A stretch of 64,000 nucleotides of DNA from the IMG/VR virus record IMGVR_UViG_3300048691_000182, positions 32,280 to 96,279 of that record; one strand, 5' to 3'. A program made the position numbers and the translations under genes. Below the pieces are notes generated by a model that was given only the letters and a program-made list of their open reading frames with translations, did not search any database and was not told the origin of the DNA. The stretch is from a virus. Positions 30,527 through 61,220 of the stretch are shown here, piece by piece; the first letter of the stretch is position 1, and each line of letters opens with the position of its first letter.

Positions 30527-32686
30527 TTAATATCTTTGTCTATAATTGCTGTAATTTTGAGTATTGTGTTTTGCTACTCTATTGGCTCTTTTAGACTCTC
30601 TAACATTATTAATAAGTTCATCAACAGAGAAGACTTCACCCTCTTCTAAAACAATAGACCTATTTAAAGATCTTAATTTTTGTTCTAGTTTAAGTATAAT
30701 AAAATCATCGTTTGTTTTACTTAGCTCTTCTTCAATAGCAACTATTTCTTGTCTGATATAATTTTGCTCCATTAGAAAATCATATTCAGCCTGGGTAGTT
30801 ACTTTATTCTTATTTGAAGCTGAGAATATTTTCTTACTGTCAATCCCATAAAAAGAAAGATTAGTAGCTTTAGTTAAGAACCAAAATATCAACAACCACG
30901 CAATTACCATATCGTCATGCATACCTTTTAAATGGTCCACACGATTATTAATAATTAACAAACTTGTTATCTGGTCTATGGTTGTCTTATCTCTAACTAA
31001 GTTTCCACCTTGTTTAGCGGCTAGTTGTAACGTAGTTGAATAAAGCTCACTTCGACTAGTTAGGCCTGAACCCGTAGTAATAAATCCAAATGTTTTCTTA
31101 TTAGTAGTGTAGACGTGCGAAGGTCTTCTCCCAAAAGGAATATTTAAATCTCTCCAGGTCTCTTTATCTTCATCACCTTTTTGAACAGCCATATTAAATA
31201 ATCTTTTAAATGGGTCAATACCTTTTGCAGGTAACATTAAAAGTAAATAATCAATAATAGCCACACCAGATGATTTTCTTTCAATAATAACAGTTAGATT
31301 GTCGTATTTAACAATCCAATCACAGATCCATTCAGCAAAAGTAATTAAATTAGTTTCATTGTAATTACCTGCACAGATAGTACCACCGTCGACAATATCT
31401 GCTAATAATAAAGATATATCATCACCACCAGAAGCATCGCTGGTATCCAGCGCCATTACAAAGTTACTAGATGACATTATTCTACCTAGTTCGTCTTGAT
31501 TCACATACCACTTTGTAATGTAGTTGTAGGGTGCGGCTATTTTGGTAGTAAAGTTTAAGTCTTGTGAATTTCTGATTCTAGTAAGTAGTTCAACAGACAA
31601 CGGAGACGATTGCGAACCAGAAGTCCAAACGTTAAAGAAGTCTCTGTCTGCATCCTCACCTTTTTGGATAGCATCTTCAATAGCGCGCTTTAACCACTCG
31701 TCGTCCTTACCTAGCTGAGTGTGGTTAAAAGTAGCATTGATGCGGAGCTTACCTGTTCTGGAGTTTAATTTAATTAATTTCTCCAACTCTTCTAAATTTT
31801 TAGCATCTAAAAAAGCCTCAGTCCATTCAGCAGCTTCTTGTAAGAGATCAAAAATATATCTACCGTCTTTATCGTCACGCTTACCAGCCGTAGTAGTAAT
31901 GATCGTACCGTGTGGTTCGTCATTTCTTCTGGCTTCGTCTCTTGCTGCCGTACCTGCTGCTAAAGCTGCTGGCATAGAGATAGCTATATTTGGTTGGAAA
32001 GGTGCTTCGTCAATATGGAATACAGGACTAGTTAAACCTCTCCCAACTTTTAAAGCATCTTTAGGCGATTTTTGAGGAACATGTGCGCGGTAATTATTAC
32101 CCATCGACTTAATACTAATTTCTTCTAAGTTATTAGTATCAGATTTAGATCTTTGTCTAAGGTAAGGAGGTAGCTCACTATCAATGTCTTTAATGCGTCT
32201 AATGTTGGTAGCACGTAGACCATCATCTTTAGTTAATAAGTTAATGTCTGTATTAGTACAGAGAATATTCATTAACAAAACCATTAATTCGTCCACAGAT
32301 AAAGATTTACCTGTTTGTCGAATCTGAATAAGAATAATGGTAATGTGATTAAAAAAACTCCAATATAAGCAAATATTACCTCTATTGGCCATTAGCATGC
32401 TAGACTGGGTGCCTGATGTAGCTGGGACTCTTGCCACTTCTCTAAAGAAGTACCATGGATTTAGTTTGCACTCTAAACCAATAGCCAGTTTCTGGTCTAA
32501 AGTTAAAAACTCAGAATGCGGATCTACTCCGTCTAATTCTTGGTTGTAAAGTGCAAGTAGGAAACAGTTGTTCTTAACACCCATTTCCTTGTATAAATTA
32601 GCTAGTTTTAAAAAGCTTTTATTACTTGTGTTATAGTGAATGGTGGCACCTGGCCACATTTTCCAATCTTCTTCAAATAGTATCAT
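30527..32686 (-). CDS. terL: Terminase large subunit (phiKZ gp25-like)
   Basis: Walker A IRQTGKS, Walker B FHIDE, motif III TTT, nuclease ALDTSDASG and HDDMVIA. Confidence 0.92.
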   Translation of the reverse strand: MILFEEDWKMWPGATIHYNTSNKSFLKLANLYKEMGVKNNCFLLALYNQELDGVDPHSEFLTLDQKLAIGLECKLNPWYFFREVARVPATSGTQSSMLMANRGNICLYWSFFNHITIILIQIRQTGKSLSVDELMVLLMNILCTNTDINLLTKDDGLRATNIRRIKDIDSELPPYLRQRSKSDTNNLEEISIKSMGNNYRAHVPQKSPKDALKVGRGLTSPVFHIDEAPFQPNIAISMPAALAAGTAARDEARRNDEPHGTIITTTAGKRDDKDGRYIFDLLQEAAEWTEAFLDAKNLEELEKLIKLNSRTGKLRINATFNHTQLGKDDEWLKRAIEDAIQKGEDADRDFFNVWTSGSQSSPLSVELLTRIRNSQDLNFTTKIAAPYNYITKWYVNQDELGRIMSSSNFVMALDTSDASGGDDISLLLADIVDGGTICAGNYNETNLITFAEWICDWIVKYDNLTVIIERKSSGVAIIDYLLLMLPAKGIDPFKRLFNMAVQKGDEDKETWRDLNIPFGRRPSHVYTTNKKTFGFITTGSGLTSRSELYSTTLQLAAKQGGNLVRDKTTIDQITSLLIINNRVDHLKGMHDDMVIAWLLIFWFLTKATNLSFYGIDSKKIFSASNKNKVTTQAEYDFLMEQNYIRQEIVAIEEELSKTNDDFIILKLEQKLRSLNRSIVLEEGEVFSVDELINNVRESKRANRVAKHNTQNYSNYRQRY

Positions 32687-46638: not shown

Positions 46639-48555
46639 ATGATTGAGTCGAAAGATTTTGCGAACACAGGCAACCAAACCGCTACTCAGGCCAACGTTGC
46701 TGAACAGCAACCAGTTAACTATGCACAGCAAAAGCCTGTTGCAGCAAATCCCCATGACGGTAAACTCAAGCCTTGGACTTTCCAAGACCGTAGTCCTTTT
46801 GGTTCGGCGCCAATTGCACGTGGCGTTGGTAGCGAGTACATTGTTAAGCTGGCAGGTATCCTGGGCGAGAAGTTCAAAGCAGCTCCAGCTACTTTCAAAT
46901 ACAATCTGATCAGCATTGATCGCTTGATTGATTCGCAGATTTGGTTCAGTGCTTTGGTGTTCTGCATGGCAGATGCTAAGAACGACAAAGCTGTTGCTTT
47001 TCACACACTGATTCTGGAAGCAACCAACATTGCTATTGCTCCTTTGACAAAGCCTTCAGGCATGCCAAATGAGAACATTCCAGTCGAAGTGTTTCGTCCT
47101 TCCAGCGATGCGTTTGACGCCGAACTGATGAAGTTGGTGAGCGCGCGTGTTCGTGATCAGTTCCCTGGTGCTAAACAGCTGTCTACTTTGGCCACTGTTG
47201 TTCCTCGTGATTTCAACATGGTTGATCAAAACCTGATCCATCAGTTGGCTGTTCAAATCTCTTTGGCCAATACCACTGAGCTGTCCATCAACGCCCCTGA
47301 TTTCACCGACATTAATCTGTCTAACATGGTTAATGACTCTCGCTTGACAGTTACCCCCACGTATACCAAGGGTGTAACGATTGATGCAGTTGATCACCCA
47401 ATCCGTTCCGATATCACGATTAACTTCAGTGCTAAAAAGAATGGCACTGGTAATGGTAACAACGAAACATCAGTCAACGTTGGCGACAACGTGGCGCAGA
47501 TTAGTCAACTGACTGGTTTCATCGATTTCATGTACTCCCCAGTACTGCCGCCTGACGTTACTAACTTTGGCGCCTACCAGCACCAACTGAAGCCTGGCGT
47601 TATCCCAACACAGACTTACGCGGCTCGTCTGGTTATTACCAACCTGGAAAACTACTTTGCAACAACTTTGCCCGGTAACCTGCTGTCGCTGACGACCGCG
47701 TTGGCAGCAAGTGAAAATGGTAACTGGATGCAAACGTTCTTGCCTAGTAACCGTTTGGTTGGTGGTAAGCCTTTCATGATGCATGATGTTGGTGGTTTGG
47801 GTATCGAAACCATCGGTAACGGTAAGCGTATTAATACCGATGGTGATGCCTTCCGTCCTGAGGACATGGGTAAGTTGATCGGTATGACTGTGCGTGAAGG
47901 TCTGACGCTGAGTCTGGATGTTCCTGATTGCGCGCCAAACACCTGGGGTTTGAAAGTATTCTCGGCAGCTGCTTCTGCACGTGAAGGTGAATTCACCCCA
48001 GCAATGGCAGCAATTTGCAATGCAGCAAACTACCTGACTAATGGTGCTTTCGATCGTAATTTCAACAAGAACTCACCAATGTTTGTTGATAAGGGTAACC
48101 GTGTGCATTTGGGTTACTACACCACCAAAGAAGGTGAGAAGCGTGACATCCGTGATTACGATTACTTGAGCGTAGCTAACATCACAGGCGAAGCTGATCC
48201 ACGCGACATCCGTCAGTGGTCGGATACGTTTGCACAAGTTAACCTACCTTTGGTTCCTCGTTTGGCTGCTCGTAAGCGCATCATCTCTAACCTGCAACCT
48301 AATGCAGTGTTCACTGGTTACGGCCACCGTGTTACGTTCAGTTCGCAGTTTATGACTGCTCTGGCCATCTCTTGCCGTGAAGCAGGTTTTGCACCAGTTC
48401 TGAGCACGCAATACGGTACTGCCGGTATGAACAACCAACGTGGCGTTAATAGCTTTGTTGGCGATGCCGCAATGGGTTCTAACAACGGTGTATTCCAATC
48501 TGCCAGCAATGGATGGAATGGTAGCAACACTTTCGGTTACGGTGGCCGTTGGTAA
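46639..48555 (+). CDS. chmA: Chimallin, phage nuclear shell protein (phiKZ gp54-like)
   Basis: 638 aa; lies immediately upstream of nvRNAP beta' and divergent from the gp52-like gene; strong high-expression codon bias; RVHLGYY..GEKRDIRDYDYL segment and G/N-rich C-terminal tail. Confidence 0.8.
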   Translation: MIESKDFANTGNQTATQANVAEQQPVNYAQQKPVAANPHDGKLKPWTFQDRSPFGSAPIARGVGSEYIVKLAGILGEKFKAAPATFKYNLISIDRLIDSQIWFSALVFCMADAKNDKAVAFHTLILEATNIAIAPLTKPSGMPNENIPVEVFRPSSDAFDAELMKLVSARVRDQFPGAKQLSTLATVVPRDFNMVDQNLIHQLAVQISLANTTELSINAPDFTDINLSNMVNDSRLTVTPTYTKGVTIDAVDHPIRSDITINFSAKKNGTGNGNNETSVNVGDNVAQISQLTGFIDFMYSPVLPPDVTNFGAYQHQLKPGVIPTQTYAARLVITNLENYFATTLPGNLLSLTTALAASENGNWMQTFLPSNRLVGGKPFMMHDVGGLGIETIGNGKRINTDGDAFRPEDMGKLIGMTVREGLTLSLDVPDCAPNTWGLKVFSAAASAREGEFTPAMAAICNAANYLTNGAFDRNFNKNSPMFVDKGNRVHLGYYTTKEGEKRDIRDYDYLSVANITGEADPRDIRQWSDTFAQVNLPLVPRLAARKRIISNLQPNAVFTGYGHRVTFSSQFMTALAISCREAGFAPVLSTQYGTAGMNNQRGVNSFVGDAAMGSNNGVFQSASNGWNGSNTFGYGGRW

Positions 48556-48689: not shown

Positions 48690-49934
48690 ATGGCAATTAG
48701 TTTAGAGCTAGTAAATAACGATAAAGTTTTCTACGAGTTACCTAACCCACCTATTATTATCAATGATGTACTCAATACATCAGAAGAAGAAAGAGAAGCA
48801 TTACAAAAACTTATCTTTAGTAAGTACGGCTCAGAGCACCTAAGTAACTTGCCCTCGTGTGATTGTGATGAAGGTGTTGGTATTGTTGGTGAATTCAACA
48901 TCGGTGTCTATTGTCCTAATTGCAGAACCTGTGTCAAGCCACCCATTGACAAAGAAATCAATTCAATACTCTGGATGAGGTCGCCAATAGGGGTGCAGCG
49001 TCTTATTAATCCAATAGTCTGGACTATGATTAGTGAGCGTTTTACAATCTCTAAGTTTAATATCATTCAATGGTTATGCGATACTGGGTATTCAGTAGAT
49101 GCTAAAGTACCAAGTGAGATAGAACTCATCCAAGAAGCAGGCATAACAAGAGGTTACAATAATTTTGTAACTAACTTCGACGCTATTATGGGTTTTCTTT
49201 TTAGTATAAAGAAATTGTCTTTAAAAGTAAAAGGACCTATTGACCATCTTCAGGTATTACTAAAAACACATAGAGAATGTTTATTTAGTAAACATATTCC
49301 GCTACCCAATAAAGCTCTTCTAATTATTGAAGAGATTAATGTAGGTACATATGTAGACCCTGTTGTTCCAGTAGCTATCAATGCTATCCAGACAATTGCC
49401 AGTATTGATGCACCAGGTAATACTTTTAGCCTTCGTGTAAAAGAAAACAGGACTGTTAAATCATTAGCTACCTTGGCTGAGTTTAACGAAATGTATGCAC
49501 ATGTGGGTCTAGGTGGTAAACCAGGTATTCTTCGAAGAAACGTATTTGGTACTAGTAATAACTTTAGTTTCCGTACAGTTATTACTTCAATTACAGAACC
49601 CCATAAAGAAACAGATATACACATACCTTGGCCTGTAGCAATTACTGTATTTAATTACCACCTGATTAACCATTTAAAGAAAATGGGATTCACTCTAAAT
49701 GAATCTATTGGGTATTTGAATAAACATGCTTACAAATACGATCCTTTGATTGATAGTATTTTTGACAAGTTTTTGAATGCAGGTAAAGGTAATGGAATTC
49801 CTCTTACACTTGGTCGTAATCCAAGTCTAGGTAAGTCTAGTCTTCTTAGTGTATTTATTACTAAGATTATCAAAGACCCTAAAATAGTAGCTACTAAAAT
49901 TAGTATACTAATTACAGCCCATCTTAATGCTGAT
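48690..49934 (+). CDS. Non-virion RNA polymerase beta'-like subunit, exon 1 (phiKZ gp55-like)
   Basis: Zn-ribbon CDC..CPNC; GKPGILRRNVFG, RNPSL; ends ...AHLNAD at the inferred splice site. Confidence 0.88.
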
Positions 49935-50398
49935 AGAAACTTAAGTAGTATTTAAGTATTAAGTATGTAAAATGAGGAGAAACATTTTATGTACAAAATT
50001 TAATAGAACATAAAACTAAAAAAAAAACGTTTTAGAGTTCGCTATTTAAGATAAGTCCTTTTATTTAGTAATAAATAAAAAGTATTCTTTTGAATTGCTG
50101 GAATAACTTGTTAGATCAGTAAACTACAATAATCCTGAAAAGAGATTATGAATGTTTAAAAATTACTGAGTAGAGTCAATCAGCAGCTAAGACCCTAAGC
50201 TCGTGAGAGTATGGGTAAAGTTCAACGACTATCCCGTAGCTGGGAGTAGGGGTTAGCAACTCCGAAGTGGAAGACTACCTAACTAGCAATAGAAGGTAGA
50301 AGATATAGTCTGTTCCTCACTGGAGACGTGAGGCGGGTGGAATACACCGGGTGTTTTTAAGAGTAGCCACTGGCGAGCGACTAACACTGGACAAAAAG
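49935..50398 (+). mobile_element. Group I intron (464 nt, no endonuclease ORF)
   Basis: Core elements P (gaattgctggaa), Q (aatcagcagc), R (gttcaacgacta) and S (aagatatagtct); 5' exon ends in U and intron ends in G; removal restores NADFDGDE in frame. Confidence 0.9.
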
Positions 50399-55848: not shown

Positions 55849-56304
55849 ATGCCTCTTAAATTTGTAACGGGTAATCTATTTGAGTCTGACTGTGACGCTT
55901 TGGTCAATACTGTAAATACCGTCGGCGTAATGGGTGCTGGTATTGCATTACAGTTTAAAAACTTATTTCCTGAAAATTATATTCTTTATAAAAATGCTTG
56001 TAAAGATGGTATTGTGGTTACAGGAAAAATGTTTACAACTGTGGCAAACTTTAAAGGTAGGAAAATACTAATAGTTAATTTCCCCACTAAAGAACACTGG
56101 AGAAATCCTTCTAAATTAAACTATATTGAAGAGGGACTTATTAGTTTAGCTAATGGTTTAAGAATGAGTGGCATAAATTCAATCGCTATACCAGCTCTTG
56201 GTTGTAGTAACGGTGCCCTTAATTGGCTGAATGTCAAAGAGTTGATTGTAAGCCATTTGGGAACTATAGATAAAGAAATTTTAATATACGAACCACTACT
56301 GTAA
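55849..56304 (+). CDS. Macrodomain ADP-ribosyl hydrolase, DarG-like
   Basis: GNLF, ALVNTVNTVGVMGAGIALQFK, NFPTKEHWR and IAIPALGCSNG. Confidence 0.88.
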   Translation: MPLKFVTGNLFESDCDALVNTVNTVGVMGAGIALQFKNLFPENYILYKNACKDGIVVTGKMFTTVANFKGRKILIVNFPTKEHWRNPSKLNYIEEGLISLANGLRMSGINSIAIPALGCSNGALNWLNVKELIVSHLGTIDKEILIYEPLL

Positions 56305-57086: not shown

Positions 57087-57159
57087 TGAATAAATAAAAA
57101 TGAAAATCACACAAGAAGGAATTATACCTTACTATTAGTTTAAACTAATAGTAAGGTAT

Positions 57160-57435
57160 ATGTCGTATACAAAAATATCAAACGTTTATTGTAAAGCAGT
57201 TAAAAATGGAATTATAGACCAGCGATCTATACCTTATTCCAAAAAGAAACAATTAGATTATAATTGGTTTTGTGTAAGACTAAATTATAAAACTGGTTAT
57301 TTCTTTATCTGTGGAAAATATAAAACTGAACTAGAGGCTCGTAAACAAATGGATAAAGTACTTCGATATAGTCCAATGTTTATTATTGAGAAAACAATAT
57401 TTGAGTCTTGTTACAGCTTTAAGGATTTAAAATGA
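57160..57435 (+). CDS. Hypothetical protein
   Basis: 91 aa with RBS. Confidence 0.55.
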   Translation: MSYTKISNVYCKAVKNGIIDQRSIPYSKKKQLDYNWFCVRLNYKTGYFFICGKYKTELEARKQMDKVLRYSPMFIIEKTIFESCYSFKDLK

Positions 57436-57750: not shown

Positions 57751-57987
57751 TTCATTGTAAATAGGTGGTAGGCTTAGAAGCAGCCATCCAATAATGAGTA
57801 GGCACGTTACAACTATCCGTTAAAGGATTGTGAGCTGTTTCTTCTGTGCTGTGGACATAGGTGCCCGAGTTAACCCTGAGCTAAAGGGTAGGATGATTTA
57901 GGTTTTTAGTGGTGGACTGTAAACCCATATTTCAGGTACTTAGCATCTGATTTCTTTTAGCGTAATAGCACGCCTTTTTACAATGGA
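57751..57987 (+). ncRNA. ncRNA mimicking the 23S rRNA uL11-binding domain (H43-H44) with a 160-nt insertion
   Basis: AGGTGGTAGGCTTAGAAGCAGCCATCCAATAATGAGT (57763-57799) plus GCGTAATAGCAC (57960-57971) align to E. coli 23S nt 1054-1102; enclosed by a long terminal stem. Confidence 0.8.
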
Positions 57988-59544: not shown

Positions 59545-59848
59545 GGCCCTGTGATGGAATAGGTAGACATAAATTAGTTGTGTCCTATAGTAGAAATATT
59601 GTAGAAAAATGGTGTAAATTCAGGGAAAGCTTAACATGTAATGATGATGCCAATCCTGAGCGAAACTTTCGCAGTAATGTGAGATGACGTGCAGAGACTA
59701 TAATCACCTATCTTAACAAGTAAAGCTGAAGATAAAGGGATAGTCCACGTAACAACAGTAATAATACTGATAGTGAAAACTATAGTTATTTGAACAGACT
59801 TAAAATCTGTCGCCGAAAGGCATCCCGATTCGAGTTCGGGCAGGGCCA
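59545..59848 (+). tRNA. trnL: tRNA-Leu(UAA) split by a group I intron (exons 59545-59570 and 59793-59848)
   Basis: Spliced exons fold as GGCCCTG/CAGGGCC, Leu-type D arm, ACAGA-CTTAAAA-TCTGT, long variable arm, CCCGA-TTCGAGT-TCGGG and discriminator A. Confidence 0.9.
59571..59792 (+). mobile_element. Group I intron (222 nt, IC3/trnL-like core) at tRNA position 25/26
   Basis: P aaattcagggaa, Q aatcctgagc, R gtgcagagactat, S agggatagtcc; IGS GTTGTGTC pairs with GACAT|AAC with a U-G pair at the 5' splice site; terminal G. Confidence 0.9.
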
Positions 59849-60752: not shown

Positions 60753-61220
60753 ATGAAGAGTTTTACTGGTGCTATTTTCAAACCAATGCTAGAATGGTTT
60801 TATGAAAATGAATCTAAAGTATATGTGACGTTTGCTGTTTCTGATCCTGGTGTTGCGGCAAAACCATGGTTTCCTGAAAGAGCACTAGAAAAAATTGAAA
60901 TTGGTGATACTAATGGAAATAAACTGGGTCAAGTCCAGGTCATTACTATCAACCTTGGGCCGGATGCCGTTGATCAATTTAAATATTGGCCAGAAGGTTT
61001 TTCTGTTTTTGTAAGATTTAACGGTGAACCGTGTGATATTTATGTGCCATACAGTGCTGTAATTTCTTTACATAATCCTAACGGAAGGAAATGGTTTGCT
61101 GATTACGTTGCTGTTTCTTTAAGAACTACTGAGACTGAAGTTATAAAAACTCCTATCCAAACAACCAAACAAACTAAACCATCAAAAGTTAACTTTTTAA
61201 AACTAGTTTCAAAGGACTAA
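60753..61220 (+). CDS. sspB: SspB-like ClpXP adaptor (stringent starvation protein B)
   Basis: ITINLGPDAV, VRFNG..CDIYVPYSAVISL match the SspB core (IVLNI.P.AV, ARFGG...VP..AVLAI); unstructured linker ends in an XB-like FLKLVSK. Confidence 0.7.
   Translation: MKSFTGAIFKPMLEWFYENESKVYVTFAVSDPGVAAKPWFPERALEKIEIGDTNGNKLGQVQVITINLGPDAVDQFKYWPEGFSVFVRFNGEPCDIYVPYSAVISLHNPNGRKWFADYVAVSLRTTETEVIKTPIQTTKQTKPSKVNFLKLVSKD

Follow-up and report, generated by a model that had tools for sequence, protein, structure and literature searches.

Why a bacteriophage should carry a free-standing copy of one functional centre of the ribosome is the question raised by a 233-nt element (57753-57985, + strand) in IMG/VR record IMGVR_UViG_3300048691_000182, an uncultured virus contig of 96 kb that is 36% complete. 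The stretch analysed, hereafter the window, comprises 64,000 nt (positions 32,280 to 96,279 of that record). A sequence-only reading of the window had proposed that the element is a phage non-coding RNA (ncRNA) that rebuilds the uL11-binding GTPase-associated centre (GAC) of 23S rRNA, specifically helices H43-H44, around a 160-nt insert. Two parts of the element, 57753-57799 and 57960-57985, are predicted to combine into one fold that faithfully reproduces the minimal uL11-binding domain, with H43 and its A1067 loop, H44 and its A1095 loop, the 1082-1086 turn, and the top of H42.

The copied rRNA domain and its family

The element was compared position by position with E. coli K-12 rrlH. Window positions 57763-57799 aligned to E. 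coli 23S nt 1054-1090 without gaps and with 28 of 37 positions identical, including an 18-nt exact run, GGCUUAGAAGCAGCCAUC, that corresponds to 1062-1079; 57960-57971 aligned to nt 1091-1102 with 11 identities in 12 positions, the H44 hairpin GCGUAAUAGC among them, for a total of 39 identities over 49 aligned positions. The base-level alignment and the 23S numbering of the sequence-only reading were therefore right, and the four differences that it had called compensatory all preserve base pairs relative to rrlH: 1057-1081 (U-A in the window, A-U in E. coli), 1058-1080 (G-C and U-A, respectively), 1082-1086 (A-U and U-A), and 1090-1101 (U-A and A-U). U1060 (57769), A1061 (57770), and A1088 (57797) were present as it had stated, and its long terminal stem was recovered, with CATTGTAAA (57753-57761) pairing with TTTACAATG (57977-57985). 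Inward of these 9-nt arms lie three further pairs plus a U-U, and the H42-like closing stem as a whole (57753-57765/57973-57985) consists of 12 Watson-Crick pairs and one U-U. The top of H42 had been assigned to the correct domain but in a register that was off by one base, because in the alignment to covariance model R1 (described below) GG at 57764-57765 occupies positions 1054-1055, 1056 is deleted, and G57972 (1103) is unpaired. No open reading frame (ORF) of ≥40 amino acids overlaps 57753-57982 on either strand. The parts of the element are as follows, all on the + strand.

57753..57985 (+): whole ncRNA gene of the phage GAC-mimic family, 233 nt, delimited by the R1 match
57753..57765 (+): 5′ strand of the H42-like closing stem (CAUUGUAAA, U, AGG), pairing with 57973-57985
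57766..57790 (+): H43 hairpin, nt 1057-1081, with the A1067 loop (A1067 = 57776); 18-nt exact match and covarying pairs
57791..57799 (+): 1082-1086 turn (closed by A-U, UAA inside) and GAGU (1087-1090), with A1088 = 57797; invariant family bases
57800..57955 (+): lineage-specific insert; its closing helix covaries in the family
57956..57959 (+): UUUA linker from insert to H44; UUUG or UUUA in nearly all members
57960..57969 (+): H44 hairpin, nt 1091-1100, with A1095 = 57964; identical to E. coli 1091-1100
57970..57972 (+): A1101 (pairs with U1090, 57799), C1102 (pairs with G1087, 57796), and unpaired G1103
57973..57985 (+): 3′ strand of the H42-like closing stem (CCU, U, UUUACAAUG), the complement of 57753-57765

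Among IMG/VR viral contigs, the exact 15-mer of the A1067 hairpin was found in at least 120 stretches, and about 95 of these, among the matches listed, had flanks of the mimic type rather than those of a 23S gene. The layout shared by these stretches begins with GGRNNGUN, followed by the 15-mer, AYCNNNUAANGAGU, and an insert of variable length, and ends with GCGUAAYAGC-ACAC and a complement of the upstream sequence; all of the family features, namely H43 with the 1067 loop, the UAA turn, GAGU, H44 (the window's hairpin being the commonest form in the family), and A1101-C1102, were found in the window at 57766-57799 and 57960-57971. An alignment of 27 short-insert members (A1), from which the window copy was left out and on which the rRNA pairs were imposed, had 92.4% of its cells paired and carried double-sided changes in 166 cells, compared with 52 ± 5.6 in shuffled alignments (0 of 500 reached the observed value); the covariation score was 0.606 and fell to ≤0.19 when partners were slid by one to three columns. 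Covariance model R1, built from A1 and comprising 186 positions, gave a single match in the window at 57754-57984 (positions 1-186 of 186, 83 bits, E 2.7e-22), which was also its only match over the whole 96-kb record; in the viral loci it recovered about 90 elements, 64-377 nt long (median 200). The covariance model that the sequence-only reading had suggested thus recovered the window copy, and the A1 helices covaried far above shuffles.

Per-position counts over the 43 unique viral members with standard spacing revealed which parts of the domain are held by structure and which by sequence. The 1058-1080 pair covers all four Watson-Crick types, 1057-1081 takes AU, CG, and UA, and 1082-1086 takes UA, CG, and AU, while the H42-like stem includes every pair type with its sequence itself unconserved. 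U1060, A1088, G1059-C1079, A1077, U1083-A1085, and G1087-U1090 never changed in these members; U1083, A1084, A1085, G1087, A1088, G1089, and U1090 in particular were found in 43/43 viral members and in 33-34 of 34 members from bacterial assemblies. Sequence conservation spans about 1054 to about 1105, with pairing alone maintained outside it, and this span matches the 58-nt fragment (1051-1108) defined biochemically as the minimal uL11-binding unit rather than the larger uL10/L12 stalk base. The invariant bases are those known for the tertiary fold and the uL11 site, and the conserved part is thus the uL11 domain. The family-wide covariation and the invariant tertiary core bear out the earlier suggestion of a selected structural mimic of the uL11-binding GAC.

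Members of the family were also recovered from cultured phages. R1 gave one match each in the finished genomes of pf16 (Pseudomonas), XacN1 (Xanthomonas), and 4_4572 (Aeromonas), at 88-104 bits, and blastn identified further carriers in Cronobacter phage GAP32, Pectobacterium phage CBB, Paenibacillus phage Pd_22F, and Pseudomonas phages Astolliot and UNO-G1W1; the element site is unannotated in every cultured-phage record. A survey of 185,579 species genomes yielded about 35 members from many phyla, nearly all on contigs of metagenome-assembled genomes, and the family is essentially a phage trait. Three loci contain paired copies close together (L069, 5121-5365 and 5438-5711; L190, 7495-7738 and 9284-9429; L231, 3989-4146 and 5200-5390).

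Identical stretches of 18 and 10 nt shared with 23S rRNA are also what would be expected of an artefact, that is, a chimeric assembly with host rRNA or a captured rRNA piece in decay. Real 23S genes were therefore sampled with a pattern that left the variable positions open, which gave 18 genomes from the phylum of one lysogen-like assembly and 39 genomes from a second phylum, presumably Proteobacteria, that share AAAGAAAG with E. coli. Position 1101 was U in 57/57 of these genomes, whereas it is A in 43/43 of the unique viral members and in nearly all of the 83 members counted at this position. Positions 1087-1090 were GAGU in the 18-genome phylum and GAAA in the 39-genome phylum, whereas the phage family has GAGU in 43/43, and GAGU is kept even in Pseudomonas, Cronobacter, and Aeromonas phages, although XacN1 has GAAU. 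The assembly at locus L194, which carries a mimic, has U1101 and no insert in its own 23S. With the change from U1101 to A, the U-U or A-U of the rRNA becomes a fixed U1090-A1101 pair at the point where the insert exits the helix.

The loops show a second difference from real 23S. Positions 1067-1070 were AGAA in 57/57 real genomes, whereas the family contains minority variants, with G1067 in 5/33 members (counted among those not selected on that half) and G1070 in 5/32; in the second loop, G1096 was found in about 15/83 and G or C at 1095 in 5/83. No change at 1067, 1070, 1095, or 1096 was observed in the 57 real 23S genomes. Because A1101 and GAGU are kept apart from real 23S, the family is, as judged from these sequences, an independent lineage with its own signature.

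This signature (A1101 and GAGU versus U1101 and GAAA in the sampled Proteobacteria) argues against a chimera or a recent capture of host rRNA, as do the phage genes on both flanks, the compensatory changes that keep the fold, and the recurrence of the same split architecture in >100 independent contigs and in finished cultured-phage genomes. The earlier observation that no rRNA sequence lies nearby also held, as other large subunit (LSU) rRNA sequence is absent from the 96-kb record, RF02541 (bacterial LSU rRNA) having no match in it at E 10. Neither is the element a simple LSU fragment, since flanking 23S domains are lacking, the 160-nt insert interrupts 1051-1108, and A1101 is present. An artefactual origin can accordingly be set aside as exceedingly improbable.

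The cmscan search against Rfam 15 (including GOLLD, ROOL, and HEARO) that had been suggested to assess novelty revealed nothing over 57753-57985 either at gathering score or at E up to 10. A published description of the family was likewise not found in the openly searchable full-text literature.

The insert at the U1090/G1091 junction

In all members, the insert opens directly after U1090 with the 5′ arm of a short helix, whose 3′ arm is followed by UUUG or UUUA and then G1091. This closing helix has three pairs, which are 93.8% paired in A1 and all show double-sided changes. The window copy conforms to this layout, with AGG (57800-57802) pairing with UCU (57953-57955), followed by UUUA (57956-57959). 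Past the closing helix the lineages are wholly dissimilar, and the insert ranges in length from 0 to about 330 nt. At locus L125 it is only a 28-nt hairpin, and two members, L086:4286-4420 (-) and L018:3700-3790 (+), are without an insert and co-linear with the 58-nt rRNA domain; L086, on an AT-rich phage contig without other rRNA, retains the rRNA-like U1101 (GCUCAC). The insert is thus a variable, optional appendage, and the sequence-only description of a domain rebuilt around it did not hold. Nor did its account of a hairpin-rich insert stand in full, as the hairpins that it named can be drawn but the fold is no better than that of shuffled sequences (minimum free energy -37.5 kcal/mol, z +0.47).

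Relatives of the window insert were sought in several ways. None were found among cultured phages by blastn or megablast; an exact 29-mer scan returned six viral-contig loci and two metagenome loci, all eight with unrelated inserts; and of 58 loci reached by synteny through the downstream protein, none carried the element, while searches made for the same purpose found no relatives of the upstream protein or of the nuclear-shell protein. The window insert is probably a tolerated, fast-evolving appendage and not the active part.

A motif of the form CACCCC-N-(GNRA or UAAC)-N′-GGUAAGG is present towards the insert's 3′ end in about 20 of 98 members, among them L010, L014, L017, L019, L030, L039, L043, L067, L071, L077, L084, L104, L115, and L116, but not in the window; its N-N′ pair covaries (G-C, A-U, U-A, G-U). 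Together with the length and lineage specificity of the inserts, this shared module with one covarying pair would suit a design in which the GAC fold is a stable, protein-coated chassis and the insert does the work as an antisense RNA, an aptamer, or a protein-binding module. Such a division of labour is improbable, however, because members with little or no insert exist, the window insert has neither relatives nor excess stability, and selection is concentrated on the core.

The 313-nt insert of L051:3700-4075 (-) includes a sarcin-ricin-like hairpin, CAU-AGUAC-GGGA-GGAA-AUG (AGUACGGGAGGAA). Such modules could complete a site at which translational GTPases or RelA are sequestered or misregulated off the ribosome, with or without uL11, so that the RNA would serve as a factor trap or platform. 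A1067 and A1095, the bases that contact EF-G, are present here and in most members, consistent with this idea. On the other hand, the strict sarcin-ricin motif was found at 1/98 loci and nowhere in the window, 60 inserts compared with E. coli 23S by short-word blast matched it at chance level only, isolated GAC RNA binds factors weakly, and the loop apex is relaxed relative to real rRNA; a role as a factor trap is therefore regarded as doubtful.

Source phage, genomic setting, and proposed function

The record encodes a nuclear-shell (chimallin-type) protein (46639-48555, +; phrog_4795, E 2e-67) along with split beta subunits of a multisubunit RNA polymerase, a tail sheath, and other jumbo-phage proteins, and the source is on these grounds a nucleus-forming (chimallivirus-type) jumbo phage. 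The tail sheath shares 46-48% identity with its counterparts in Burkholderia phage FLC9 and Ralstonia phages RP12, RP31, and FLC4-3B; an exact-peptide search of IMG/VR found no close relative of the phage. Genes for a phage uL11 and a phage RelA/SpoT were sought in the record and not found, the record being 36% complete.

The surroundings of the element are all on the + strand and consist of small ORFs without family matches, a macro-domain gene, an SspB-like gene, five tRNAs, and two group I introns. The macro-domain protein (55849-56304, +; PF01661, E 2e-15; phrog_335 ‘phosphatase’) is encoded just upstream of tRNA-Met, and the SspB-like match (60753-61220, +; PF04386; phrog_8945) is weak, at 25.4 bits against a cut-off of 27 bits. 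The introns were identified by Rfam at 50037-50333 (+, 70.7 bits), after a 421-amino-acid ORF for an RNA polymerase beta subunit (48690-49955), and at 59561-59771 (+, 66.1 bits), within the tRNA region. Some 600 nt upstream of the element, two + strand ORFs flank a perfect 17-bp palindromic hairpin (57123-57160), which may mark the start or end of the transcription unit of the element.

Across the family, a tRNA gene lies within 1 kb at 59/98 loci, always on the same strand, and abuts the element in some 20; in pf16, for example, the element ends 8 nt ahead of tRNA-Pro. By contrast with the tRNAs, no protein neighbour recurs: an all-against-all blastp of 1371 nearby ORFs yielded no cluster present in more than six locus groups, and macro-domain, LigT, and SspB-like neighbours do not recur across the family loci. 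In XacN1 (L129:228-878) the element directly follows a gene annotated as a 2′-5′ RNA ligase, a gene family that is not recurrent near other members.

These neighbourhoods bear on whether the element acts in cis. An operator in the style of ribosomal-protein leaders, in which uL11 or another protein binds the mimic within an mRNA and controls the adjoining genes, would be in keeping with the position of the element 6 nt past a stop codon and with its 3′ strand, which covers the ATG (57983) of a 43-amino-acid ORF. Nevertheless, most members are flanked by tRNA genes and not by ORFs, no gene recurs downstream, and the 43-amino-acid ORF has no family match, so that a cis-acting role is considered highly unlikely. 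The position in tRNA arrays instead suggests a stable trans-acting RNA, and the lack of a regular protein neighbour points to a partner supplied by the host. We infer a stable trans-acting RNA that binds a host component recognising the uL11 rRNA domain.

The reading that we put forward, with moderate confidence and on the strength of conservation patterns, is an off-ribosome decoy for uL11. The RNA would be transcribed together with the adjoining + strand genes and tRNAs and would reach the cytoplasm, as phage tRNAs must; there it would take up the rRNA fold and bind host uL11 off the ribosome, and possibly also other recognisers of the surface formed by uL11 and rRNA. The likeliest effect would be that uL11 is drawn from ribosomes by competition and the stringent response is damped during infection; since RelA is not activated by ribosomes that lack uL11, a uL11 sink would blunt that response. 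An apex looser than in real 23S, where these bases are the contacts of translation factors and thiopeptides, combined with an invariant core, fits a partner that reads the core fold, and the members with no insert or nearly none (L086, L018, and L125) identify the core as the functional unit.

Several points weigh against a uL11 decoy. Most cellular uL11 is already bound to ribosomes, and titration within one infection cycle may be inefficient. Both loops are near-perfect in most members, which would equally suit a factor, a toxin, an antibiotic, or some other partner that reads the loops. The window copy itself departs from the family, as its deletion of 1056 and unpaired G1103 leave it without the non-canonical R1056-A1103 pair; R-A is found there in 41/43 members, but L075 shares the G1103 variant of the window with a shifted register, and the G1103/1056-less form is thus a tolerated minority form. 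The window element is on the same strand as the five tRNAs, but the nearest are about 1.3-1.5 kb away, at 1.35 kb upstream and 1.3 kb downstream of its ends, and no sigma-70-like promoter or intrinsic terminator was detected at the element by scans that are not suited to the RNA polymerases of the phage itself, so that processing into a discrete RNA is less obvious than in the tRNA-flanked members. Finally, R1 found no match in FLC9, FLC4-3B, RP12, RP31, or LucasX (positive controls matched); the cultured chimalliviruses nearest to the source thus do without the element, which is accordingly an accessory trait in this group, and a conserved chimallivirus trait is ruled out.

Near-exact loops raise the prospect that the target is an attacker of the GAC and that the RNA soaks up a toxin, a modifying enzyme, or a thiopeptide from the host or a competitor. 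A toxin of this sort exists, as Tre23 ADP-ribosylates H44 at 1095-1098 and blocks the GTPase of EF-G (PMC8661411), and the tRNA arrays in which the family sits are known counter-defence neighbourhoods (PMC10264068). In the window, moreover, the same strand carries the macro-domain gene, whose family is that of the ADP-ribose hydrolases, at 1.45 kb upstream of the element. Such a neighbour was found within 5 kb of none of the 97 other family loci, however, and a stoichiometric decoy would have to exceed tens of thousands of ribosomes. The apex (1067, 1096) is also the least constrained part of the domain, the reverse of what a target-site decoy should show, and we know of no anti-phage system that targets the GAC. 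A decoy for GAC attackers is, on balance, unlikely.

Taking uL11 capture and attack on the GAC together, we propose, more tentatively than for the uL11 decoy itself, that phages of many bacterial phyla may use a free-standing GAC copy to capture uL11 or a GAC-directed host factor in the cytoplasm, and in doing so would disable RelA alarmone signalling or a ribosome-directed defence. The domain that is copied binds uL11, touches every translational GTPase, and is required for RelA to be activated; thiopeptides and at least one ADP-ribosylating toxin act on it. Should the RNA bind uL11 or a GAC-directed factor, host translation and stress signalling would be under phage control at a new level, and structural work would gain a natural set of compact GAC folds diversified by evolution; an rRNA-domain decoy, if true, would be an unrecognised viral way to manipulate translation. 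The window copy would add a translation-directed RNA to the nucleus-forming phages, which keep ribosomes outside the compartment in which this RNA is made. The family is directly testable because cultured carriers exist for Pseudomonas, Xanthomonas, Cronobacter, Pectobacterium, Aeromonas, and Paenibacillus.

Comparison with known systems

Neither Rfam 15 nor the openly searchable literature describes a viral RNA that imitates a functional centre of the ribosome on its own, and the closest comparison is with the bacterial 23S GAC itself (top of H42, H43, and H44; E. coli 1051-1108). The two have the same secondary structure, the same loops (GGCUUAGAAGCAGCC and GCGUAAUAGC), and the same bases in tertiary contacts (U1060, A1088, and the 1082-1086 turn). 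Unlike the bacterial GAC, the phage element stands alone, is split at 1090/1091, and has A1101, a generic covarying helix in place of H42, and a looser loop apex.

Ribosomal-protein leaders (L1, L10 [RF00557], S8, and S15) likewise imitate the rRNA site of a protein off the ribosome. These act in cis within the cellular mRNA of the protein itself and usually reproduce only a local motif, whereas the element is phage-encoded, lies among tRNAs or unrelated small ORFs, and reproduces a whole tertiary domain. To our knowledge, there is no uL11-binding leader of this kind; none of the Rfam leader families matches the element, there is no uL11 gene in the 36% complete record, and the neighbours are small ORFs of no known family.

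The species 1 and 2 RNAs of T4 (rnaC/rnaD) are likewise small RNAs tied to a phage tRNA cluster, and they are stable and matured with the tRNAs. Identity with them was rejected, as R1, run with filters off, did not exceed 9.5 bits over the tRNA region of T4, which lacks the GAC loops.

Phage tRNAs are thought to replace, or to shield as decoys, tRNAs hit by defence nucleases (PMC10264068), and like the family they are phage copies of a translation component, in the same neighbourhood and on the same strand. Phage tRNAs, however, work in translation itself, whereas a lone rRNA domain has no way into a ribosome and can therefore act only by binding something.

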